Shown here in pieces: positions 3,838 through 29,094 of a DNA stretch of 64,000 nt. Every line of letters begins with the position of its first letter. Position 1 is the first letter of the stretch. The notes under the pieces were generated by a model. It did no database searches and was not told where the DNA came from. It saw only the letters and a program-made list of their open reading frames with translations. The DNA lies in contig JAAYUB010000092.1 of assembly GCA_012517875.1 (NCBI GenBank), positions 51,121 through 115,120 of the forward strand. The letters are read 5' to 3'. The DNA comes from Acidobacteriota bacterium. Its GTDB lineage: Bacteria; Acidobacteriota; JAAYUB01. A program made the translations under genes and the position numbers.

Positions 3838-6800
3838 TTACTCAGCCAGCCGGGCGGCCAGCAGGCGGCAATCCAGGGCATCGAGCGCGCCGGACCGGTT
3901 GAGATCGCCCATGTCCGGCCGGAGACAGGGCGGCTTGCCGGGCGCCAGGTTACCCACGACCAGGTGCAACAGCAGGCCCAGATCCCGGGCATCGGATCGA
4001 CCATCGCCGTCCAGATCGCCGTCGGGCTCCAGGACACAGCGGATTTCGCGGCCGCTCACCTGGACATCGTCCACGTACCAGCCGCCCGATCCCACCACCA
4101 GGTCACAGCCCAGGCGGAAGCGGATCTGGACCCTTTGGCCGCCGTATGCGGCGAGATCCACTTGGGTCTGGATGAACCCCTGGCTGTCGCCGGACCAGGC
4201 GGCGCGCCGGCCCAGCGGATTGAGCAGGAAGAAATCCAGCTCGTGCGTGTAGCCGCCGGCGCTCATCGCCGAACCGAGGTCGGCCCACGGCTCCGTGGCG
4301 GTCCGGATCTCCAGGACGCCGCCGTCGGACTCTGTCTCCAGGTCGTAATCGTGCCAGAAGGTCAATGCCGCACCTTCAGGCACTTCAAACCAGGGGCTCA
4401 GCAACGAGTTATCCTTGATGTTGTCTTCCGCGGGGGTGAACCAGCTGGTTGCCGGAGAATGGCTCCACCCGCCGACCTGCGACCAGTCGGTCACTCCCTG
4501 GTCGAGCAGGTGGCTCCACCCGCCCGCACCCGCCTCCACGTCGTCCGCAAACGTGATCCGGTCCACCTCTTCGCCCGCGAGCAGCGCCATCGGCTGCTCC
4601 CACTGCAGCGCGTCGCCCGCTTCGTTCCGGCATTCGATGGTCAACAGCCAGTCCAGTTGCGCGCCACAGGCCAGCGCATCATCCAGGATGACGTAGAACT
4701 CACCGGTCGCGACGGCACCGACCGCCAACGTGGAGTAACCACTGGCCGCGGGGTCAATCTGGACCTCCGGCATGCCGGTGGCCAGGCTGGCGGTGACATC
4801 CACGGCGGGATTCGTGCCGATGTTCTGCAGAGTCAGCTGCATGGTCACCGACTCGCCCGGTTCCGGGATCCCGTCGCCGTCGCCACCCCAAAATTGCCAG
4901 TCGGTCGGGACCACCACCGGTCCCACCACCGGCATGAAGCAGAGGCTGAGCCCGGGTTCCACCACCGGTTCGCGGCAGGCGAACTGAAGCCCTTTCGTTC
5001 CGTTGTAATCCTCGATCCCCACCGTGGCGTCGGCGCCGAAGTCATAGGCCGGGTCGCCGAACGCGGTGTCCTGGTAATTCAGGTGGATCTTGTGGGTCGA
5101 CTCCTCCAGCGCGACCTGGAACGTGACCGCCCCGACTTTGTTGTAATGCGCCACATTCAGCCAGGACACCACGAACAGCCGGTGGGGCGGCTGCCCGTCA
5201 ACCCGGTAGCGGATGGCCGCCCCCGGCTTGGTCAGGTCCAGGTCGGTCCAGAACGCCGCGATGACCGCGTTGGGATTCTCCGGCCGGGGGATCTGCGTGT
5301 TGCCGGCGTCCCAATCGTAGACGCCGGTGAAGCGGAGCAGTCCGTTCGTGGAGATCAGCACCTGTTCATACGTCTTGCCGTAGAACTTGAACGGGAACCC
5401 GATCGGTACGACCGCGCCCGCATCATCCTGGCCGGCCAGGACGGCCGCTCCACCCGCCGGCTCGATCCAGGCCGGGTCCTGCGTCTGCATCAGGTAGTCC
5501 ATCCGCTCCACCACCTCGCCCGAGACCACCTCCTGGTCGGCGGCCAGACCGGGCGCGCTGGCGAAAAACGTGATCTGGGCGCTGCTCGGGCCCGCCGGCA
5601 CCCACCGTCCGGTGAACAGCCCGTCATTTGCACGGACATCGGCGTCCGCACCGTCGTCGCTCAGGGTGAGGGTGCGCGTGCCCGCCGCATCCACCACCCG
5701 GGCGGTGACGTGCGGCTGGTCCACCGGTTCGGCGCAATCGGTGCCCACCACGGCGCCCAAGGTCACGTCATCACCGTCCATGACGACGAATCCACCTGCA
5801 GGCTGGTCGGGGACAAGCCGGACGGCTGTCGGAGTGCAGGTCCAGTGCAGGGCGGTCTCGGGACAGCCGAAGAGGGTGGTTTCAAAATAGACCCAACGGT
5901 AACTGCCGTCGCCGGCCAGGGCGGCCAGACGCTGACGGGATTCGTTCAGGGCAAGACCCAGATTGCGGCGGAACTGCTCGAACACGGATCGCATGTACTC
6001 GTGGTCAAACACGTTGGACGTGCCGTTGGTGCCGCCGGACGCGTACCAGCCGTAGCGCGTGTTCATCACCGCGGCGAACGCGGCGGCGGTGGTACCCACG
6101 GTCATCCGCTCGGCGAAACAGACGTCGTAGACGAAGTTCCCCGGGTAGCAACCCTGGCTGTACACAAAGAACGGACAGGTGTTGGTGAGCCGGCTGACAT
6201 CGGAGTTGTACAGCTTCAAGCAATAGGTGCTGTTGGCGTGCCCCAGGTGGTTGACGATGTGTGTGTCGTCGGTGTTGAAATAGGTGTCGATTAGCGTATC
6301 GGTCGACCACTCCGCACCCGGCGCGTCATACAGGCGCTCGGCGGGAATTCCGGCCATCGCCCCGTAAACGACATCCTTGCTGTCGCCGCCATAGGTCTGG
6401 TCGTCCAGCTTTTCGCCCAGCAGCAGCGTGCGGAAGGGTGGCGCAGAGTTCTCGTAAGCGATGATTTTCTGAATCTGGGTGGTCGCTTCCGTGGGGCTCG
6501 AGGCGGCGATGCGGCCCACTGCCACCTCCGCGAACAGGTCGGTCTCGTCGGCGGGCTCGCCGAACAGACTGTTGCCGTTCGCGTTCCAGTCGCCGTCGAG
6601 GGCGGCGAAATAGAGATCGGTGGGGATGGCGGTATCCACGGTGTCGCCGACCTTGCCATAGGTGCCCCGCCACGGGATGATCTCGCTGTCGCCGCCGAGC
6701 ACCACCCAGCGGGTGCCGTGGCTTTGGTATCCGGAAGTGATGAACGTGCGGAGCTTGTGCGCGCTGTCGGTGCCCGGCGTGGCGGCGAGGATGTCCTCGA

Positions 6801-20401: not shown

Positions 20402-22138
20402 ATGCGACGCATCACCTGGTCGGCCTGTTACCTGTCGCGCCGCGGGACGCTGGTCACCGGTCTCTGGCTGGGACTGGCTCTGGCGCCCGCCGCCGCCGGC
20501 AGGGACGCCCTGCCTCCGCCCACGTCGGTGCTCGCTGAGCTGACCGCCGCCGCCCGTTCGACCAAGCCGGCGGATGTGAAGCACCGTCTGAACCGCGCGG
20601 ATTCCCTCCTGGACCATGGCGCCGCGGTCGACGAGCGGGACGACCTGGGCCGCAACATCCTGCACTGGGCGGTGATCACCGCAAGCACCGCCACCCGCCG
20701 GGCCGAGCAGGAGCGCGGCATCGAGGTCCTGGAACATCTGCTGCGCCATGGCGCGGACCCCAACTGCCGGGACGTGTTCGGAAACGTGCCGCTGGATTAC
20801 GAGGGATTCGCGCCGTACGAGACCATCCAGGACCTGCTGCTGGAAAACGGGGCGGAAGGCCGTGAAGTCAACACGGTCGCCCACCGACTGGCGGAACAGG
20901 TGGCGCAACTTGAGACCGCCAGCACCGCCGGCGACATGGACCGGCTGCGCGCCTTGCTGGAGGCCGGTATCCCCATCGGGACCAGCCTGGACATCCGGCT
21001 GACCTCCGCCGTCGGCAGCGCCCGGTCCCGCGCCGGCGAGCTCGTCGAGGGCGTCATCTGCGCGCCGGTGACGGTGAACGGCCGGGCCGTGTTCGGCGCC
21101 GGGACCCGCATCCGCGGAACCGTGCTGCGCACCCAAAAATGCCGCAATGCCTATGACCGGGCCAACCTCATGCTGGACCTGTGCGACGTGATCCTGCCGA
21201 ACGGTTCCCACCTGTGCCTGACAACCCGGCTGCAGTCGGTGGACAACGCGCGCGAGACGGTCCGCGACGGGCTGATCATCGGCATCGCCTACCCGCACAA
21301 CACCGCCAGCCGGATCTCCATGGGGTTCCACATGCTCGGCAAGCTGTACCCGGCGGTGGGTTACGCATTCGACAGCGCCATGTACGCCTTCGGCCTGACC
21401 TACCACCGCGAGATCGACTACCCGGCCGGCACCGAGCTCACCGTCCAGGTGCAGCTCCCCTGCCGGTTCGCACCGCCCGCCGGCGTAACGCCGTGGCCGG
21501 AACTGACCCTCGACGAGGCGACTGCCGCACACCTTCGCAGCGGCCCTGGCCGCACCGAGTCCGCCGACGGCCGGCCCGGCGACTGTGTCAACATCGTGCT
21601 GCTCGGAACCGCCGCGCAACTGCGGCAGGGATTTGAAGCCGCGGGTTGGACCCCGGCGGAGAAGACGGGCATGGTCTACGGCGCCAAAACGTTCCTGGCC
21701 GTCCTGCAGCAGAAGGGCTACGCGACGGCGCCGGTGTCCACTTTCCTGATGGGGGATCGGCCGCCGGACCTGGTGTTCCAGAAGCAACTCAACACCTTCG
21801 CCAAGCGACATCATGTCCGGATCTGGCGGCTGTCTGAGCCCGTCGGCGGCGAGACCGCCTGGCTGGCCGCCGCCACACACGATGTGGGCATCGGCGCGGA
21901 GAAAGCCGGACTGTCCTGGTACCACCGGATCGATTCCCATATCGACCGGGAACGGGACAAGATCGCCGCCGACCTCATGTTCACGGGGCTGCCCCGGGGC
22001 GTCTGCTGGCTGGACCGGCCGGACTTCCCGCGCACCGCCAAGAACGCCACCGGGGACGATCTGGTCACCGACGGCCGGATGCTGGTGCTCGCCTTCCCGG
22101 CGCACGCGGCGACCGCCGGTACCGGGTCAGCCGATTAG
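20402..22138 (+). CDS. secreted ankyrin + VirB10/TrbI-like + LssY C-terminal domain protein
   Basis: Signal peptide; ankyrin-like DDLGRNILHWAV...LLRHGADPNCRDVFGNVPL; IRLTSAVGS...GTRIRGTV beta domain; LssY_C-like GDCVNIVLLG, RHHVRIW, ATHDVG, HRIDSHIDRERD. Confidence 0.75.
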   Translation: MRRITWSACYLSRRGTLVTGLWLGLALAPAAAGRDALPPPTSVLAELTAAARSTKPADVKHRLNRADSLLDHGAAVDERDDLGRNILHWAVITASTATRRAEQERGIEVLEHLLRHGADPNCRDVFGNVPLDYEGFAPYETIQDLLLENGAEGREVNTVAHRLAEQVAQLETASTAGDMDRLRALLEAGIPIGTSLDIRLTSAVGSARSRAGELVEGVICAPVTVNGRAVFGAGTRIRGTVLRTQKCRNAYDRANLMLDLCDVILPNGSHLCLTTRLQSVDNARETVRDGLIIGIAYPHNTASRISMGFHMLGKLYPAVGYAFDSAMYAFGLTYHREIDYPAGTELTVQVQLPCRFAPPAGVTPWPELTLDEATAAHLRSGPGRTESADGRPGDCVNIVLLGTAAQLRQGFEAAGWTPAEKTGMVYGAKTFLAVLQQKGYATAPVSTFLMGDRPPDLVFQKQLNTFAKRHHVRIWRLSEPVGGETAWLAAATHDVGIGAEKAGLSWYHRIDSHIDRERDKIAADLMFTGLPRGVCWLDRPDFPRTAKNATGDDLVTDGRMLVLAFPAHAATAGTGSAD

Positions 22139-23643
22139 TACCGCCGTTGGAAAAACGCCGGCGGCTGCGCCGCGGGATCATAGCCGGGCACCCAGCGCGC
22201 CACCTGATCCGCCCCCTGGCTGAGGCGCTGCACACACCGGGCGCTGAACTCGTCCAGCAGCCGGCGGGCTTTGTCTGCCCGCCCTCGCCGCACCAGCTCG
22301 GCGGCGCGGCGGCGGACCTCCCGCCACTCCTTCAACTCCTTCCGCTCCAGCCCGGCCCAGTGGGCGCGGATCCGCCGGATCACCTCGTCCGACTCGCCCC
22401 AGCGGGCTTCCAGGTTCCGCGACACCGCCGCCAGCCGCCACCACAGCGACTCCTTTTCATAGGCGCTCCCCGCGCGGGTCAGTTCCGCCGGGAGCCGGAG
22501 GTCCAGCGCCGGGAAGAACGGAACATACGCGTTGAGACATGGCACGTGCAGGCACGCCCACAGGGTGCCGCCCAGGCTGTCGGCCACGCCGGGCTCGGAA
22601 ACGGCGATCATCGAGCCCACGGTACCGCCGTAGCAGATGGTGCGCACCGGAACCCCCTCCAGCAGGGAGCCGGGCAGAGAACAGTGCGGATCGACGCCTG
22701 GCGTGTGCGGCCGGATGGAGCGACCGTCGTCGGTCCGGAAGGTCCAGGCCTCGAAATGGTCCCGGAGCACGGCGGCAATCCCCTCCACCGTGATCCGGCC
22801 TTCGATCCGCCGCATCCGCTCCATGCCCCGGCGATAGCGCATCTCGTTGTAGTGGGTGTTGTCCGGGCCGTGATAATCCTTGCTGTATGACAACCGGAAA
22901 CTGAATCGCCCGTTCTCCTCGCGGTACTGTCCCTGGGCTCGGGCATGTTCCATGAGCTCGCGGCGGCGCAAATGGAACCGGTCTGAATCGTCGGGCAGGT
23001 CGGGGTCGGTGATTTCGAACCGGTTGGCCCGCACACAGACACCGTCGGTCACCCGGACGGCCGCCCAGCGGTTGCCGGTGGTCTCGATGATCCAGATCTC
23101 AGTGGGGTCGGCGACGGTGTAGATCTCGGGCACCCGGCTGTGATGGCTGGCGATGAGCGCATCCACCAGGTCCACCGCTTCCCGGGCGGTGCGGCAGCGC
23201 TCCAGGATCAGGCGGGTGATGTCGTTGTCGTGGAGGGCCGGCCCGTCGAAGGTGTCCCAGGTGTTGCCGTCGTTGTTGGCCACGCTCACCTGGTGCCGGT
23301 TCATGCCCATCCCCACGCCCCAGCGCCACAGCCGGTCGTTCCGACTCCGTTCATCCATGGATTTGAAGCCGAGCAGCTGCCAGGTCTGGCGGGCGGCGTC
23401 GATGGTGATGAACTGCGTCGCCAGCGTGGCACCAGCGGGGTGTTCACCGTCCGGCTGAAAGTGGAGGATCTGGCCGGAGTCGACGGGGTAATCACGGTTT
23501 TTGCCCAGGATGGTCACGCCGTCGCGGGTGGCGCGCCCGGTGGCGCCCACCATGGTGCAGTCGGCGGCCTGGACCTGGGCCGCCAGCAGGGCCGCCGCCA
23601 GGAGGAGCCAGCCGACAATGGTCCATACGGTGCTACGCTTCAT
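22135..23643 (-). CDS. secreted C69/secernin-like Ntn-hydrolase peptidase
   Basis: Signal peptide followed by N-terminal nucleophile Cys (ADCTMV), ILGKNRD, GMNRHQVSVAN, IWIIET. Confidence 0.82.
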   Translation of the reverse strand: MKRSTVWTIVGWLLLAAALLAAQVQAADCTMVGATGRATRDGVTILGKNRDYPVDSGQILHFQPDGEHPAGATLATQFITIDAARQTWQLLGFKSMDERSRNDRLWRWGVGMGMNRHQVSVANNDGNTWDTFDGPALHDNDITRLILERCRTAREAVDLVDALIASHHSRVPEIYTVADPTEIWIIETTGNRWAAVRVTDGVCVRANRFEITDPDLPDDSDRFHLRRRELMEHARAQGQYREENGRFSFRLSYSKDYHGPDNTHYNEMRYRRGMERMRRIEGRITVEGIAAVLRDHFEAWTFRTDDGRSIRPHTPGVDPHCSLPGSLLEGVPVRTICYGGTVGSMIAVSEPGVADSLGGTLWACLHVPCLNAYVPFFPALDLRLPAELTRAGSAYEKESLWWRLAAVSRNLEARWGESDEVIRRIRAHWAGLERKELKEWREVRRRAAELVRRGRADKARRLLDEFSARCVQRLSQGADQVARWVPGYDPAAQPPAFFQRRY

Positions 23644-23733: not shown

Positions 23734-25854
23734 TCAGTAACCGTAGGCCGCCACCACCGCCTCGGGGCCGATGTCATTGCCGTTCTGATCGATGTGGGCA
23801 AAGTTGTAGTTGTTCCCGTTCGTGAGCTTGATGTGAAACGCCCGGTACATGCCGATGGGCAGCCGGTTGGTTTTGAATTCCTTGATGGCCGAGCGCGGCA
23901 CTTCGAAGTCGTCCGTGCGGCCGTCGATGGAGCGGATGGTCCGGTAGACCACCCGGTCAGGATAGATGGATAAATGGCCGATGCAGAACAGCGTGAAGTC
24001 GCCGCTGTGGTCGTGCCCCACGAGGAACGTCTGCGCCTGGCTTTCGACGGCGGCTTGCTGCTCCGCGTGCTCCAGGTTGCTCATCAGTTGGCGGTAGTCG
24101 CTGTTGGCGGGGAAAAACTGCATCAGCAGCCGGCACAGGCGCTTCGCGGACGCCAGGTCGCCCGAGTTGATCTGCGACTGCATCTGGCTGTGGACCATGG
24201 AGACCGCGTCCTGCTGCAACTGCAGGGCGTACGCGTGGCCGGGATCGCGCCGGAGAATCTCCCCGGTGAGCTGCAGCACGTTGTTCCCGGGTGGTTCGAT
24301 GAACCGTCCCGCGGAATACGCCTGGTAGGCCTGGGTGGACAAGGCCTGCAGCGGATCGTCCACGGGTGTTTCTCCACCCGAGCCGGGCTGGTCGCCTTTG
24401 TTCGCCCATTTGCCGGAGTCGGGCGGCTCCTCCGCCGGCGGTGGCGGCGGGACCGGTGTCGGTTGCGGCTTGGCGTCTTTCCGCCCCTTGTCCGACTGCG
24501 CCGCGCCGCCGGGAAGCACGGGCAGCGTGAGCGTGCCGGTCGGCTGGCTCGATGGCGGACTGGCGGCCGGCAGGGACGCGGGGGTTGTCACGGGCGGAGT
24601 CTGGGTGCCGCCGGAGCTGCCGCCGGCCACCGTGGTGGAGGCGGTCGGCGTCTTGGGTGACGGTTTGAGTAACACCGCCAGCACCACGACCGCCAGAGCC
24701 ACGATGATCAATCCGGCAGCGGCAACACCTCCGATTATCAGCACCTTCTTCTTGCTGGTATCGGGCCGGGCGGCGGGGAAACCGGTGCCCAGCCGCGAGT
24801 CAAACACGGTGGCGCCGGGAATCTGAACACCCTGGGTGCCCGGCGGATACGCCTGGGTGCCACCCGGATATGCCTGCGTCCCGGCAGGGTACGCCTGGGT
24901 GCCCGGCGGGTAAGCCTGTGTTCCGGCGGCGTACGCCTGGGTGCCCGGCGGCGGCGGGGGCGTGCCCGCCGGTCGGGCCGGGGCGGCGCCCGTGGCGGCA
25001 TAGGCGGCGGTGGCGCGGGGCGGCGGCGCCGTGCGGAGGGCCTCCTGCAGCGCCGCGCCGAGCGCCTGCGAAAATTCTTCGACGGTCTGATATCGGGTGC
25101 GCGGATCCTTCTCCAGGGCGTGCAGGACCGTCCGGTCGAACACCTTGGGCAGCTGCGGTAGGACCTTGGAGGGCGAGGGCGGCGGTGTGCGCACGTGGGC
25201 CTGCATGATCTCGAAATCGGTGCTTCCCCGGAACGGCACCGTGCCGGTGAGCAGCTCGAAGAGCGTGATGCCCAGCGCGTAGATGTCGCACCGAAAATCA
25301 GTCTCCTTGCCCTGGATCTGCTCGGGCGACATGTAGTACAGGGTGCCCACCTGCAGGCCGGTCTGGGTCAGGCGCGACTGGCCCATCACCCGGGCGATGC
25401 CGAAGTCCATGACCTTGACGATGCCTTGCCGGTTCACGATCATGTTCGACGGTTTGATGTCCCGGTGCAGGATGCCCATCCGGTGGGCCTGGCTCAGGCC
25501 GAACAGGGCCTGCTGGAACAGCGGCACGGCCTCGTGAAAAGGGACGGCGCCGCGCTGCCGGATCATCTGCTCCAGGTTCATCCCCTCGACGTACTCCATC
25601 ACCATGAACAACTGGTCCTGGTGGCGGAAAAAATTGTAGAGGGTGCACACGTTGGGGTGGTTGAGCTGGGCCTGGGTTTTGGCTTCGGCAAGAAACCGCT
25701 GGATCAGGCTGGCTTCCTGCGACAGCTCTTTTGACAACACCTTGATGGCGACAATGCGGTCCAGGTTGATGTCCACCGCCTTGTACACCGTGCCCATGCC
25801 GCCCTGGCCAATTTTTTCCAGAATTTTATAGTGGTCGATGACTTGACCGATCAT
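23734..25854 (-). CDS. transmembrane Ser/Thr protein kinase with heptapeptide-repeat linker
   Basis: IGQGGMGTVY, VAIK, HRDIKPSN, DFG, GTLYYMSPE; one TM helix; extracytoplasmic Pro-rich, TPR-like and PH-like regions. Confidence 0.95.
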   Translation of the reverse strand: MIGQVIDHYKILEKIGQGGMGTVYKAVDINLDRIVAIKVLSKELSQEASLIQRFLAEAKTQAQLNHPNVCTLYNFFRHQDQLFMVMEYVEGMNLEQMIRQRGAVPFHEAVPLFQQALFGLSQAHRMGILHRDIKPSNMIVNRQGIVKVMDFGIARVMGQSRLTQTGLQVGTLYYMSPEQIQGKETDFRCDIYALGITLFELLTGTVPFRGSTDFEIMQAHVRTPPPSPSKVLPQLPKVFDRTVLHALEKDPRTRYQTVEEFSQALGAALQEALRTAPPPRATAAYAATGAAPARPAGTPPPPPGTQAYAAGTQAYPPGTQAYPAGTQAYPGGTQAYPPGTQGVQIPGATVFDSRLGTGFPAARPDTSKKKVLIIGGVAAAGLIIVALAVVVLAVLLKPSPKTPTASTTVAGGSSGGTQTPPVTTPASLPAASPPSSQPTGTLTLPVLPGGAAQSDKGRKDAKPQPTPVPPPPPAEEPPDSGKWANKGDQPGSGGETPVDDPLQALSTQAYQAYSAGRFIEPPGNNVLQLTGEILRRDPGHAYALQLQQDAVSMVHSQMQSQINSGDLASAKRLCRLLMQFFPANSDYRQLMSNLEHAEQQAAVESQAQTFLVGHDHSGDFTLFCIGHLSIYPDRVVYRTIRSIDGRTDDFEVPRSAIKEFKTNRLPIGMYRAFHIKLTNGNNYNFAHIDQNGNDIGPEAVVAAYGY
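24832..24945 (-). repeat. in-frame 21-bp tandem repeat encoding (GTQAYxx) x5 plus GTQ
   Basis: GTQAYAA GTQAYPP GTQAYPA GTQAYPG GTQAYPP GTQ; synonymous variation between units. Confidence 0.95.
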
Positions 25855-25867
25855 GAGATGCCCCCGA

Positions 25868-26458
25868 TCACAATCTCCGGAATTTCAGATATACGCCGCC
25901 GATCCGGATCAGATCCTCGTCCGCCAGCAGATGGCGAGGGGACGGTTGGGTACCGCTGTTGACAAACACGGGCCCCTCCAGCCCTTCCAGGTACAGGCCG
26001 TCCCGCTCCTTCACCACCCGCGCATGGCACGGAGCCACCCCTGCCTCCTCAAGCCGCAGGCCGGCGCCATGGCCCGAGCCGACCACCAGCTGCTCGCGGT
26101 CGAGGCGGACATCCACAAACTTGGCGGCTCCGCTCATGACCACCAGCCATCCCAGCAGGGGCAGACCGCCGGACGGGCGCGCCGGGGGAGGCGTGAGCGG
26201 CAGCGTGGGCATTGCGTCAGCGGACGCGATGTCCGCCACCGTCGCACCCGGAGGCGTTCGGTAGTGTGCGGTATAACCGTCCACCACCGTCGCCCGCAAC
26301 GGTGAAGCGGGAGCCAGTTCGGTGGGTGAGGCGACCGGCACCGGAGGGGGAGTGGAACTGCCCAGTGGCTTCTGCACCCCGTCCTCGCTTCGGGCGCAGT
26401 AGGGGCACTCGGTCATCCACTCCTCCATCGGGTGTCCGTGCGCACAGAACTTCAGCAT
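25868..26458 (-). CDS. Zn-ribbon + degenerate FHA domain protein
   Basis: N-terminal CAHGH...CPYC; Pro/Thr linker; LLGWLVV followed by an FHA-like fold lacking the GR, SxxH serine and NGT motifs. Confidence 0.8.
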   Translation of the reverse strand: MLKFCAHGHPMEEWMTECPYCARSEDGVQKPLGSSTPPPVPVASPTELAPASPLRATVVDGYTAHYRTPPGATVADIASADAMPTLPLTPPPARPSGGLPLLGWLVVMSGAAKFVDVRLDREQLVVGSGHGAGLRLEEAGVAPCHARVVKERDGLYLEGLEGPVFVNSGTQPSPRHLLADEDLIRIGGVYLKFRRL

Positions 26459-26491
26459 CGTTCCACTCCGGCTCCGCCCCCGAACCGCGGA

Positions 26492-28141
26492 TCACTCCAC
26501 CCGGAAGATCGCCGCCTGTTTGCTTCCCAGAATGATCCGGTCGCCGCTTTTGACGAAATTCTGCTGAACCCGCGGCGAGTTGATGTCGTTGATGAAAGTC
26601 CCGTTCGTCGATCCCCGGTCCTCCAGCAGGAGACCTTTGGGGCTCGGAGTGAGCAGCGCATGCACCTTGGACACGTGGTCGTCCGGAATGACCACCGTGC
26701 ATTGGGATGGGTCGCGGCCGAAGATCAAGCCCTTGGACGGTATCTCCGTTACTTTGCCGGCACCAGGGCCCTTCTCGCAAACCAGCCGGCCGAAGCTGCC
26801 CACCTGCTGGCGTTGCGATTGGACATCCACAACCGTGGCCCGCATCTCCGGGGTGCCGGCCGCCGGCCGCGGGGGCGACGGGGCGGCTTTCTTCCCGCGC
26901 GACGCCAGGATCACCACCACGCCCACGATCACCAGTAACAGCAGCCCGCCCCCCACGATCGCCAGTATCGTGCCGTATCGACTGAAGAAGGTGGGCGGAT
27001 GGGCGGTGAGCCATTCCTGGCATTTGACCTGGATCCGTTTGGCGTCCGGCTGGTTGGGCATCAGGCGCAGGATCTCATCGCACTTGACGATCGCTTCCTC
27101 ATAATCCTCGTCGAAGTAGAGATCCAGCGCCTGCTGCCACAGGCTATCGATCAATCCGCGTTTTGACTGGATGCCGGCGGCACTGATGAATTCCTTGGCT
27201 GTGTTGATGGGAACGGCGAAATTGAAGCCTTGGATCGGGATGGCGCTTTGGGCGCCCGTGGGGGCCAGGCTGATGAACGTAGCGATACCGATCACCTCGC
27301 CTGTATCGTTGAAGACCGGGCCGCCCGAATTGCCCCAGGTGACCGGCGCGTCAAACTGGATGACCGGCGTGCCCTTCACGTCCAGCTTCAGGCTGGACAC
27401 GTGGCCCGAGGTGATGGAGGCTTCGAGCATCGAGGACTGGCTCAGGTAATCGTGCTGGCTCACCACGCCGGGGTAGCCGGCGGGGAACACCGCTGCCTGG
27501 AGCGAAACTGCAGCGGAGTCGCCCAGCGGCACCGTGGGCAGATTGCCCTGTTCGATCTTGAGCACCGCGATATCCTTGCCCGACTCCTCCTCCTCGTAGC
27601 TGAAGATTCCCTCGGTCTTGCCGGCGACAGGTGTGATCGGCGGGCTGTACTGCTTGATCTCGGCGGGGAAGTACTGCCAGTTCGACAGGAACACAAACAG
27701 TTGCTTGGACACCTGAAACACCGCCGCGGCCGCAAGCTGCTGGAAGACCGATACCTTCTCTTCCTGGGTCAGGGGCGCACCCTTCCGCTGCTCCAGCGCG
27801 GGAAAGATGTGCTGCGCGAGGATCTGCACCAGTGCTTGCGACTTGAGCGAGTTGTTCTCCTTGCTGTGGTACTCTTTCACCACATGGCCGTTGGTCACGA
27901 TGTAGCCGTCCGGATTGACAATGAATCCGGAGCCGGATCCGCTCATGTCCATGGGGTCGAACTCCTGCAGGCCTTCATTCGTCCGGATCGCCACCTTGAC
28001 CTGAATCCGCGAGTAGACCATGACCACGGCCGGTTTGACGGTCAGTATGTTCTTCTCGCGCGCCCGCTCTTCGGCGGCAATCAGCGGCGCCCCGAGAGCC
28101 AGCACCAACAGAAGGGCGAGAACGCACCCGCGCTGAGACAT
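26492..28141 (-). CDS. membrane-anchored trypsin-like serine protease with cytoplasmic FHA domain
   Basis: Signal peptide; triad TNGHVV / KDIAVLKI / GNSGGP; TPR-like helices; TM helix; intact FHA (FGRD, VSKVH, GSTNGTFIN). Confidence 0.92.
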   Translation of the reverse strand: MSQRGCVLALLLVLALGAPLIAAEERAREKNILTVKPAVVMVYSRIQVKVAIRTNEGLQEFDPMDMSGSGSGFIVNPDGYIVTNGHVVKEYHSKENNSLKSQALVQILAQHIFPALEQRKGAPLTQEEKVSVFQQLAAAAVFQVSKQLFVFLSNWQYFPAEIKQYSPPITPVAGKTEGIFSYEEEESGKDIAVLKIEQGNLPTVPLGDSAAVSLQAAVFPAGYPGVVSQHDYLSQSSMLEASITSGHVSSLKLDVKGTPVIQFDAPVTWGNSGGPVFNDTGEVIGIATFISLAPTGAQSAIPIQGFNFAVPINTAKEFISAAGIQSKRGLIDSLWQQALDLYFDEDYEEAIVKCDEILRLMPNQPDAKRIQVKCQEWLTAHPPTFFSRYGTILAIVGGGLLLLVIVGVVVILASRGKKAAPSPPRPAAGTPEMRATVVDVQSQRQQVGSFGRLVCEKGPGAGKVTEIPSKGLIFGRDPSQCTVVIPDDHVSKVHALLTPSPKGLLLEDRGSTNGTFINDINSPRVQQNFVKSGDRIILGSKQAAIFRVE

Positions 28142-28257: not shown

Positions 28258-29094
28258 ATGCCGCATGCCCCCAAGCGGAAACGTTCGGCCATGACGCGCT
28301 GCCGACTCACCCTGACGAACGACCTGCACCTGGATCAGATCCACCGGTGGAACCACCCCTGGTCTGATTTCCTTGCTCGTCTGGCCCGGGAGGGCGTCCA
28401 GCGGCTGGTCCTGGCCGGCGACATGATCTCGTTCGCCGAGCACAACCTGGACAAGGCGTTCCGGGCGCTCGCTCCTTTCACCGGGCAGATCCTGTACACA
28501 CCCGGCAACCACGACCTGTGGACACGTTCCGGCGATTCCCTGCAGCTCTACGAGGAATACATACCGGCAGTCTGCGCCCGCTACGGCGTGCACTACCTGG
28601 ACGCCGCCCCGTACATCGAGGGCGCGGTGGCCGTTGTCGGCAACGTGGGCTGGTACGATTATTCGTTCCGGGATGAATCGCTGGGCTACCCCGAAGACTG
28701 GTATCGGCAACGCTGGATACCCGGACGGTTTCAATGGATGGACCGGCATTACATCCGCTGGCCGCTGACAGACCCGGAATTCGTCGACTGCTGCTGCCGG
28801 CGCCTGGATGGCCAACTGGCCGGACTGCCCGACTCTGTGGACACGGTGGTCGTTGTCACCCACCACATCCCGTTTCACGAAATGCTGGTCCGCAAACCCG
28901 ATCCGGTCTGGCGGTTCGGCAACGCCTTCATGGGCAGCCCCCGGCTTGGTGCAGTCATCCGCCGGCATCCGCAGGTGGCCCACGTCTTCTGCGGCCATTC
29001 GCACGTCGGGGTGCGCGTCACCATGGCGGAACGCACTGTCGTCTGCCTGGGCGGCAACTCCAATGAGAAAGTGCTGGAAACCATCGAGCTATGA
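28258..29094 (+). CDS. calcineurin-like metallophosphoesterase
   Basis: DLH, AGD, GNHD, HH and GHSH metal-binding motifs; start may be ATG 28291. Confidence 0.9.
   Translation: MPHAPKRKRSAMTRCRLTLTNDLHLDQIHRWNHPWSDFLARLAREGVQRLVLAGDMISFAEHNLDKAFRALAPFTGQILYTPGNHDLWTRSGDSLQLYEEYIPAVCARYGVHYLDAAPYIEGAVAVVGNVGWYDYSFRDESLGYPEDWYRQRWIPGRFQWMDRHYIRWPLTDPEFVDCCCRRLDGQLAGLPDSVDTVVVVTHHIPFHEMLVRKPDPVWRFGNAFMGSPRLGAVIRRHPQVAHVFCGHSHVGVRVTMAERTVVCLGGNSNEKVLETIEL

Follow-up and report, generated by a model that had tools for sequence, protein, structure and literature searches.

A single short motif recurs in all three proteins of a gene cassette in the sequence analysed here, a 64-kb stretch (the window) of contig JAAYUB010000092.1 from an Acidobacteriota bacterium. 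The cassette encodes a membrane-anchored trypsin-like protease with a cytoplasmic FHA domain, a small soluble protein with a zinc ribbon and a degenerate FHA fold, and a PknB-like membrane kinase. Judged from sequence comparisons, the motif – K/R-A-T-V-V-D – is most likely a phosphorylation and docking site that links the membrane kinase to the protease. We think it probable, though well short of certain, that [RK]-A-T-V-x-D serves phosphothreonine (pThr) signalling within the cassette as a short linear motif: the kinase would be the writer and the protease FHA domain the reader.

A six-frame translation of the window contains A-T-V-x-D, the core of the motif, just four times, and the four occurrences are exactly the four copies in the cassette – one in the protease, two in the small protein and one in the kinase (Table 1) – that an earlier note on this DNA had listed, with sequences and positions both exact. 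Composition alone predicts 0.028 copies in 1451 residues, and three or more copies were found in none of 200,000 shuffles. To correct for the post-hoc choice of motif, every pattern with four fixed positions in a five-residue span was enumerated. A-T-V-x-D proved to be the only such pattern common to all three proteins; a shared pattern with at least four copies arose in 0.3% (global composition) to 1.0% (local composition) of shuffles, giving a corrected P of about 0.003–0.01. On the window alone the coincidence is moderately significant. A DNA-level repeat or gene conversion is ruled out, the four copies differing in their synonymous codons.

The claim that all copies lie in predicted disordered linkers also stands. 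AlphaFold2 (AF2) models built with family alignments give a predicted local distance difference test (pLDDT) score below 50 for residues 417–447 of the protease and 28–84 of the small protein, in each case between confident domains, and the kinase copy sits, by its sequence, in a low-complexity juxtamembrane stretch rich in Pro, Gly, Thr and Gln. All four copies are cytoplasmic: the protease copy follows the membrane helix, the kinase copy precedes it, and the other two belong to a soluble protein. This topology rules out the motifs as cleavage sites for the cassette's own protease, the catalytic domain of which is periplasmic.

In the protease the motif, with the consensus [LM]-K-[AK]-T-[VTI]-V-[DE], is the sole conserved island of the linker between membrane helix and FHA domain, flanking columns scoring 0–0.6. 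It is found in every cassette examined, in the form [LM]-[RK]-A-T-[VT]-V-D in all 10 cassettes compared. Among 20 relatives of at least 48% identity, the Thr and the Lys/Arg at −2 are present without exception, Val occupies +2 in 18, and +3 is Asp in 19 and Glu in one. The candidate acceptor, Thr436, lies 16 residues before strand beta-1 (E452) of the FHA domain, in a segment of pLDDT below 50. By residues and fold, the C-terminus is predicted to be a canonical pThr-binding FHA domain (PF00498): it scores 51.6 bits against a Pfam cut-off of 20.7 (E 1.3e-13), is modelled as a beta-sandwich with pLDDT of about 97, and retains G475, R476, S491, H494 and N513, each invariant in 81 sequences. The nearest solved FHA domain is one of those of Rv1747 (6cah; E 4.7e-7).

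The periplasmic part of the protease is likewise intact. Its Trypsin_2 domain (Pfam, 6.7e-25) is framed by a hydrophobic helix at the N-terminus and by the membrane helix, the catalytic triad His86/Asp190/Ser272 is invariant in 81 sequences, and the mean pLDDT of the whole model is 89. Membership of the HtrA/DegP family was considered and, despite the triad, rejected: there is no PDZ domain, and TIGR02037 gives 96 bits against a cut-off of 416. On this evidence the protein is a trypsin-like protease with a C-terminal half unlike that of HtrA/DegP.

The small protein carries its two copies in tandem. Its N-terminal zinc ribbon is marked by C5, H7/H9, C18 and C21 (CxHGH...CPYC), and 13 homologues, down to 40% identity, were available for comparison. 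Across these the linker is variable except for a handful of positions – T57, V58, D60, G61, T63, P69, T73 and D76 – of which G61 and D76 are invariant and T57, V58, D60, T63 and T73 nearly so. The conserved positions define a repeat unit of about 16 residues, L-[RK]-[AP]-T-V-[VI]-D-G-[YQH]-T-[EA]-x-[YF]-[RQ]-x-P, after which comes another T-[VI]-x-D; homologues have two or three tandem motifs (three in the homologue P0011). Ser never replaces the motif Thr in either the protease or the small protein, the only substitution being Lys, in the homologue P0010.

At the C-terminus of the small protein an FHA fold is predicted that has lost residues expected of a canonical pThr-binding domain. Ser128 stands where the GR pair has its Arg, Ala142 takes the place of the Ser in SxxH, and the Asn of the NG pair is missing, while G127 and H145 remain; in an alignment with FhaA, G-s stands opposite G-R and v-a-t-r-H opposite V-S-R-R-H. 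The Pfam FHA score, 19.6 bits, falls below the 20.7 cut-off. Replacement of the Arg is seen in 13 of 14 small-protein homologues; loss of the Ser and Asn, the latter with a shortened loop, is a property of the window clade. P0010 is the sole family member with an intact GR pair and also the sole one that lacks Thr in both linker motifs. Given the loss of the phosphate-binding residues, a canonical cis switch of the GarA type is implausible in this protein, which looks like a multivalent ligand or adaptor and not a reader. The string LPLLGWLVVM, considered as a membrane segment, is ruled out as such: it forms FHA strand beta-1, with pLDDT of about 95.

A further Thr in the small protein, to which the earlier note did not refer, is Thr63, directly after the first of the two tandem copies (GYTAHY; consensus G-[YQH]-T-[EA]-x-[YF]). 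The aromatic residue at +3 is also a feature of T-Q-A-Y and T-V-A-Y repeats in the kinases, and Thr63 could mark a second class of motif.

The kinase matches Pfam Pkinase (1.1e-58) and the NCBIfam PknB/Stk1 model over its kinase domain (1.9e-105), and has the expected catalytic motifs: GQGGMGTV, VAIK, HRDIKPSN, DFG, the activation loop LTQTG with its PknB-like TQT, and SPE. The PknB/Stk1 score of 354 bits over the kinase domain is below the cut-off of 450 because PASTA domains are absent. By these sequence features the protein is a Hanks-type Ser/Thr kinase, PknB-like.

The motif fares differently in the kinase. Among the 13 kinase tails compared, only those of the nearest relatives, L001 and L002, retain GATVFD; L044 and L048 (TMAD) and L050 (TIVE) have partial equivalents, and none was found in L003, L049, L046 or L053. 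Other tails have two to four G-x-T-[VIMQ]-[AF]-x repeats (for example GATVAY, GQTVAA, GRTMAD and GATIFA) with Tyr, Ala, His, Thr or Asp at +3. The A-T-V core is thus common to all three proteins; an acidic residue is fixed at +3 in two of them only, the protease and the small protein. Conservation in otherwise divergent linkers, which the earlier note had named as a check, is borne out for these two, where Thr and the +3 Asp are nearly invariant, and fails for the kinase, where +3 varies.

Directly upstream of GATVFD the kinase carries five 7-residue repeats, each containing GTQAY (period 21, 5.8 copies, according to Tandem Repeats Finder), each a candidate phospho-site with Gln at +1 and Tyr at +3. 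The near-identical L001 metagenome-assembled genome (MAG), whose protease is 98% identical to that of the window, has six copies; in other relatives GATVAY or GQTVA repeats are seen instead. The GTQAY repeats, which echo the LTQTG of the activation loop, are probably autophosphorylation sites. The periplasmic C-terminal 308 residues of the kinase (residues 399–706; 23734–24660, minus strand) gave no Pfam match. The L050 kinase shares with them a conserved final stretch of ~100 residues (HDHSGDFT...FHIKL.NG.NYNFA), and a short stretch of weak similarity, recognised by eye, occurs in a stand-alone 238-residue open reading frame (ORF) upstream of the L050 protease gene (5202–5918). This periplasmic region may represent a sensor domain not described before.

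Within the acidobacterial clade the motifs of protease and small protein are nearly identical (Table 2). In L050, which has no small protein, the AKTIVE of the kinase tail follows the Ile variant of the protease motif (KKTIVD) found in the clade of L050. More distantly related zinc-ribbon-FHA linkers are dotted with T-x-x-[DE] (PTVIE, TTIE, ETVVD, TTID), and those of the distant cassettes L051 and L052 have three tandem K-T-x-I-[VFL] or G-[AK]-T-x-[IV]-[SF] motifs. The proposal of the earlier note that one phospho-code runs through the whole cassette can be retained, on these alignments, for the acidobacterial clade of the window and not for the family at large: in the distant cassettes the motifs of protease and small protein differ.

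Table 2. Motif variants in the linkers of selected cassettes
Cassette	Protease	Small protein	Kinase tail
Window	RATVVD	RATVVD, GATVAD	GATVFD
L046	KATVVD	KATVVD, KATIVD	none
L047	KATTVD	KATVVD, KATVVD	GQTVA repeats
L050	KKTIVD	no small protein	AKTIVE
L053 (P0010 cassette)	KATVVE	RPKVMD, no Thr motif	KPTVVF, GATVAA, GATAFA, GATIFA

From this arrangement we infer the following scheme. The PknB-like membrane kinase would phosphorylate the motif Thr in its own juxtamembrane segment, in the two tandem copies of the zinc-ribbon/FHA adaptor and in the protease linker; the FHA domain of the protease – the only one in the cassette with an intact phosphate-binding site – would then read pThr-V-V-Asp. If so, the A-T-V core most likely reflects the acceptor preference of the kinase, and the invariant +3 Asp most likely reflects selection by the FHA domain. 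Several ligands would be open to that domain: its own linker, with docking either in cis or from one protease subunit to another; the bivalent small protein, which could bridge two proteases; and the kinase tail. Competing or bridging docking would allow kinase activity to set the assembly state or the position of the periplasmic trypsin-like protease.

Few cases of bacterial Ser/Thr kinase signalling are known in which sequence alone is enough to name the writer, the reader and the site. Here the cassette offers three or four named threonines, one intact FHA domain and one degenerate FHA domain that serves as a built-in negative control, and the invariant +3 Asp breaks with the rule, followed by bacterial FHA ligands characterised so far, that +3 is hydrophobic. 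If the scheme is correct, it would provide a first functional handle on a large and unstudied family of trypsin-like/membrane-helix/FHA proteases, and a case of cytoplasmic phosphorylation controlling a periplasmic protease.

The scheme has both parallels to and departures from known systems. GarA and OdhI, which are among the nearest solved FHA sequences, resemble the protease in that a disordered stretch immediately ahead of a canonical FHA domain contains a Thr; theirs is phosphorylated by a Hanks-type kinase, as is proposed here. Their motif, E-T-T-S-V-F, has a hydrophobic residue at +3 and is resembled by the adaptor motifs of L051 and L052. Both are small, soluble proteins that regulate metabolic enzymes, whereas here the FHA domain forms the cytoplasmic tail of a periplasmic protease and the motif has Asp at +3. 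The feature that characterises them – a disordered Thr within reach of a canonical FHA domain – is found in the protease and not in the small protein. In layout the former, with its canonical domain and 16-residue spacing, agrees with the GarA/OdhI analogy drawn in the earlier note; the latter, its FHA residues lost, could not work in this way.

In DgcB, an FHA-GGDEF protein of Bdellovibrio, the FHA domain binds the protein's own pThr some 18 residues upstream, with activation as the outcome and cis versus trans binding left open (PMC6733907). DgcB is among the PDB sequence matches, and its tail, E-K-pT-S-I-V (PMC6733907), is like the motif here in its Lys before the Thr and its Val/Ile at +2; the L051 and L052 adaptor motifs resemble it as well. 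It differs in that the +3 Val sits in a hydrophobic pocket, the output domain is cytoplasmic and there is no tandem-copy adaptor (PMC6733907). In Rv1747 of M. tuberculosis, an ABC transporter partnered with PknF, two FHA domains bind phosphorylated Thr sites in their own linker (PMC3138270). Shared with the cassette are a membrane protein encoded beside a kinase gene, a disordered-linker Thr just upstream of an FHA domain, and several sites or readers; the differences are Ile or Met at +3, an ABC transporter as effector, and FHA domains that are both functional (PMC3138270).

A parallel for the +3 Asp is Rad53 FHA1, the ligand of which also has a conserved Asp at pThr+3. There the preference stems from Arg83, two residues before the conserved Ser (the position Ser-2), which forms a salt bridge to the Asp (PMC4037201). 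In the protease FHA domain this position is His489, within the conserved string PDDH[VI]SK[VL]H. Strict membership of the Rad53 FHA1 type was rejected on this ground, which weakens the parallel with Rad53 drawn in the earlier note; His489 itself or Lys541, in the GSKQ loop, are candidates for the role.

Two further likenesses concern domain layout. Residues 400–520 of the protease match NF049868, the model of the membrane-anchored FHA protein FhaB/FipA (Rv0019c), over helix, linker and FHA domain (E 1.5e-15), but with 57.6 bits against a cut-off of 125, and FipA has no extracytoplasmic protease domain. ArnA of Sulfolobus has the zinc module and C-terminal FHA domain of the small protein, the profile of which matches 5a8i (E 5e-7). 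ArnA retains its phospho-recognition site and reads phosphorylated ArnB (PMC6509490), whereas the small protein has lost the site and carries Thr motifs in its linker. Relative to GarA/OdhI, DgcB and Rv1747/PknF, then, the cassette departs in its +3 Asp, in the His at the Rad53 selector position, in the degenerate FHA fold of the adaptor and in having a periplasmic protease as effector.

The combination of trypsin-like domain, membrane helix and FHA domain is widespread across several phyla: 2097 homologues were found at E ≤ 1e-10, both domains being present in nearly all of the best 120 of these, and source names in the family include Geobacteraceae, Eisenbacteria, Deltaproteobacteria and Hydrogenobacter. 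A search of the available literature library on this architecture, and on a bacterial pTxxD reader, returned nothing specific to either; the sole related mention was an FHA-FHA-trypsin protein of Bacteroides in a 2008 survey. In 108 family linkers, T..[DE] is commoner than in shuffled linkers (31 observed against 9.3±2.8) and S..[DE] rarer (1 observed against 10.6 expected), figures that relatedness among the sequences inflates. Such a bias towards Thr over Ser is what pThr-only recognition by FHA domains predicts.

The same number of sequences, placed on a neighbour-joining tree of the protease domain alone, was used to compare the residue at Ser-2 with that at +3. All 22 family members with His at Ser-2, which fall in three separate lineages, have a T-x-x-[D/E/Q] linker; a clade with Gly at Ser-2 has Ala, Val, Ile, Met or Pro at +3, its linkers reading QQT[KR]A[AV] or AKTA[VM], with a small hydrophobic residue there. 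The pattern is suggestive of co-evolution between the two residues, and a link of this kind at clade level could help in predicting FHA specificity from sequence. More tentatively, we entertain the possibility that the kinase controls the periplasmic protease across the membrane through one linker Thr read by the protease's own FHA domain, that Ser-2 and +3 co-evolved clade by clade to yield a His-based pT-x-x-Asp reader in Acidobacteriota, and that a bivalent zinc-ribbon adaptor clusters proteases.

How well does the evidence bear out a kinase that writes the motif and a protease FHA domain that reads it? Two precedents were counted in favour: the Thr near the FHA domain of DgcB (PMC6733907) and the phosphorylated linker Thr sites of Rv1747 (PMC3138270). 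A number of observations weigh against it. The residue that determines +3 Asp selection in Rad53, Arg83, is His in the protease; family members that do have Arg at Ser-2 have Met or Val at +3, and an acidic +3 occurs also with Asn or Ala at Ser-2. With His at Ser-2 and such mixed pairings, the analogy with Rad53 is loose. Characterised bacterial FHA–pThr pairs have a hydrophobic +3 (PMC3138270, PMC6733907), unlike the Asp here, and the linkers of many distant protease-FHA relatives are devoid of Thr. Within the cassettes, the kinase copy is poorly conserved and not as TxxD, the protease motif differs from the adaptor motif in L051 and L052, and P0010 lacks Thr in either of its motifs. Finally, in phosphate-free AF2 models of the single chains no motif is docked on either FHA domain and none forms a strand; as modelling results, these argue weakly against phospho-independent docking and are uninformative about a phospho-dependent contact.

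A more specific version of the same idea is the full model of the earlier note, according to which the protease FHA domain is a Rad53-FHA1-like pTxxD reader and pThr436 autoinhibits it in cis, after the manner of GarA/OdhI, in competition with trans binding. By analogy with DgcB, where the distance is 18 residues (PMC6733907), Thr436 is close enough to reach the domain, and the near-identity of protease and small-protein motifs within the clade, with their invariant +3 Asp, counts in its favour. Yet the Rad53 selectivity position holds His for Arg, binding in cis is indistinguishable on present evidence from binding between subunits, the small protein is unable to autoinhibit canonically, and the kinase copy is not conserved. 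We regard this full model as rather unlikely.

Alternatively, the motifs could be substrate or autophosphorylation sites of the kinase and nothing else, acting through charge or conformation, or through an outside reader, with no FHA domain of the cassette involved. The kinase tails of all relatives, with their multiple G-x-T-[VIMQ]-[AF]-x repeats and variable +3, do resemble an acceptor and not a reader consensus, and the Rad53-type Arg is absent from the protease domain. Such an account is nonetheless improbable: it leaves unexplained why +3 Asp/Glu is near-invariant in protease and small protein and yet free in the kinase, why a canonical FHA domain lies 16 residues downstream in every family member, and why the residues at Ser-2 and +3 follow a trend.

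It is also unlikely that the motif is a phosphorylation-independent docking element – a short beta-strand, for instance – for some shared partner (the kinase domain, say, or else the zinc ribbon or degenerate FHA fold of the small protein), with the Thr playing a structural part. The string T-V-V-D-G-Y-T-E-F-Y is indeed rich in beta-branched and aromatic residues; an FHA fold devoid of phosphate-binding residues must bind something differently; and in the DgcB crystal the unphosphorylated tail also occupies the FHA cleft (PMC6733907). AF2, however, leaves both linkers at pLDDT below 50 with no strand at the motifs, and the strict bias for Thr over Ser, the co-encoded kinase and the PP2C phosphatase of L051 and L052 all point to phosphorylation. 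Chance recurrence in linkers rich in Ala, Pro, Gly, Thr and Val, within a genome of ~65% GC, has a negligible probability even though the corrected within-window P is only 0.003–0.01: the motif occurs nowhere else in the six-frame translation, and it is kept at homologous linker positions down to 40% identity and in the low-GC L050, which, with the shuffles, refutes it.

The three genes are co-directional on the minus strand in the order protease, small protein, kinase, with gaps of 33 and 13 bases (Table 1), and the genomes nearest to the window are Acidobacteriota MAGs. In all nine acidobacterial loci with a small-protein homologue (L001–L003, L042, L044 and L046–L049; small-protein identity 40–93%), the small-protein gene has the protease-FHA gene on its upstream side and the kinase gene on its downstream side. 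The distant cassettes L051 and L052 have the order protease-FHA, kinase, zinc-ribbon-FHA, PP2C phosphatase, and the presence of PP2C there argues that the module is one of Ser/Thr phospho-signalling. Compared with these, the small gene of the window clade is shifted to a place between protease and kinase, and no PP2C gene adjoins; none was found in the operon of the window.

Table 1. Features of the cassette and its surroundings (window coordinates unless a locus is named; aa, amino acids)
Feature	Position	Strand	Description
Protease gene	26492..28141	-	549 aa; bitopic: N-terminal hydrophobic helix, periplasmic trypsin-like domain, membrane helix, disordered linker, cytoplasmic FHA
Trypsin_2 protease domain	27284..27934	-	aa 70-286; triad His86, Asp190, Ser272 (GNSGGP)
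Protease membrane helix	26900..26989	-	aa 385-414 by AF2; followed by basic SRGKK on cytoplasmic side
Protease disordered linker	26789..26899	-	aa 415-451; columns variable outside motif
Motif copy 1, RATVVD	26825..26842	-	protease aa 434-439; candidate phospho-acceptor Thr436
Protease FHA	26495..26788	-	aa 452-549; predicted canonical: G475, R476, S491, H494, N513; His489 at Ser-2
Small-protein gene	25868..26458	-	196 aa, soluble; N-terminal zinc ribbon, disordered linker with tandem Thr motifs, C-terminal degenerate FHA
Motif copy 2, RATVVD	26279..26296	-	small protein aa 55-60; Thr57
GYTAHY	26261..26278	-	small protein aa 61-66; Thr63, aromatic +3; directly after copy 2
Motif copy 3, GATVAD	26231..26248	-	small protein aa 71-76; Thr73; opens second, shortened copy of 16-residue repeat unit
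Degenerate FHA fold	25871..26161	-	small protein aa 100-196; AF2 pLDDT about 95
Kinase gene	23734..25854	-	706 aa; PknB-like kinase domain, juxtamembrane Thr repeats, membrane helix, periplasmic C-terminal region
GTQAY repeats	24831..24951	-	kinase aa 304-336; five 7-residue repeats, Tyr at +3
Motif copy 4, GATVFD	24799..24816	-	kinase aa 347-352; Thr349; 18 residues ahead of membrane helix (aa 371-396)
Metallophosphoesterase gene	28258-29094	+	Pfam Metallophos; TIGR03729 'putative phosphoesterase' below cut-off; divergent from protease gene
PP2C-bearing stretch, L051	9966-10925		distant cassette
PP2C-bearing stretch, L052	9975-10919		distant cassette
Small-ORF pair, L042	10719-11480		after kinase gene
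Small-ORF pair, L044	6732-7612		after kinase gene
Small-ORF pair, L047	7066-7827		after kinase gene

A metallophosphoesterase gene diverges from the protease gene of the window and is a possible phosphatase candidate for a cassette without PP2C. It is also a neighbour in L001 and L002 and absent from the other loci compared, apart from the distant low-GC L050, where an orthologue of 47% identity lies near the protease gene, upstream and on the opposite strand; one ORF, of 238 aa, separates the two. On the other side, the kinase gene is followed by a Peptidase_C69 gene both in the window (22135–23643, minus strand) and in L049 (8690–10183); it may have been retained as a neighbour by part of the clade. 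In several distant cassettes, and not in the window, the kinase gene is followed by two small ORFs without a Pfam match, the first of about 110 aa and the second of 86–134 aa.

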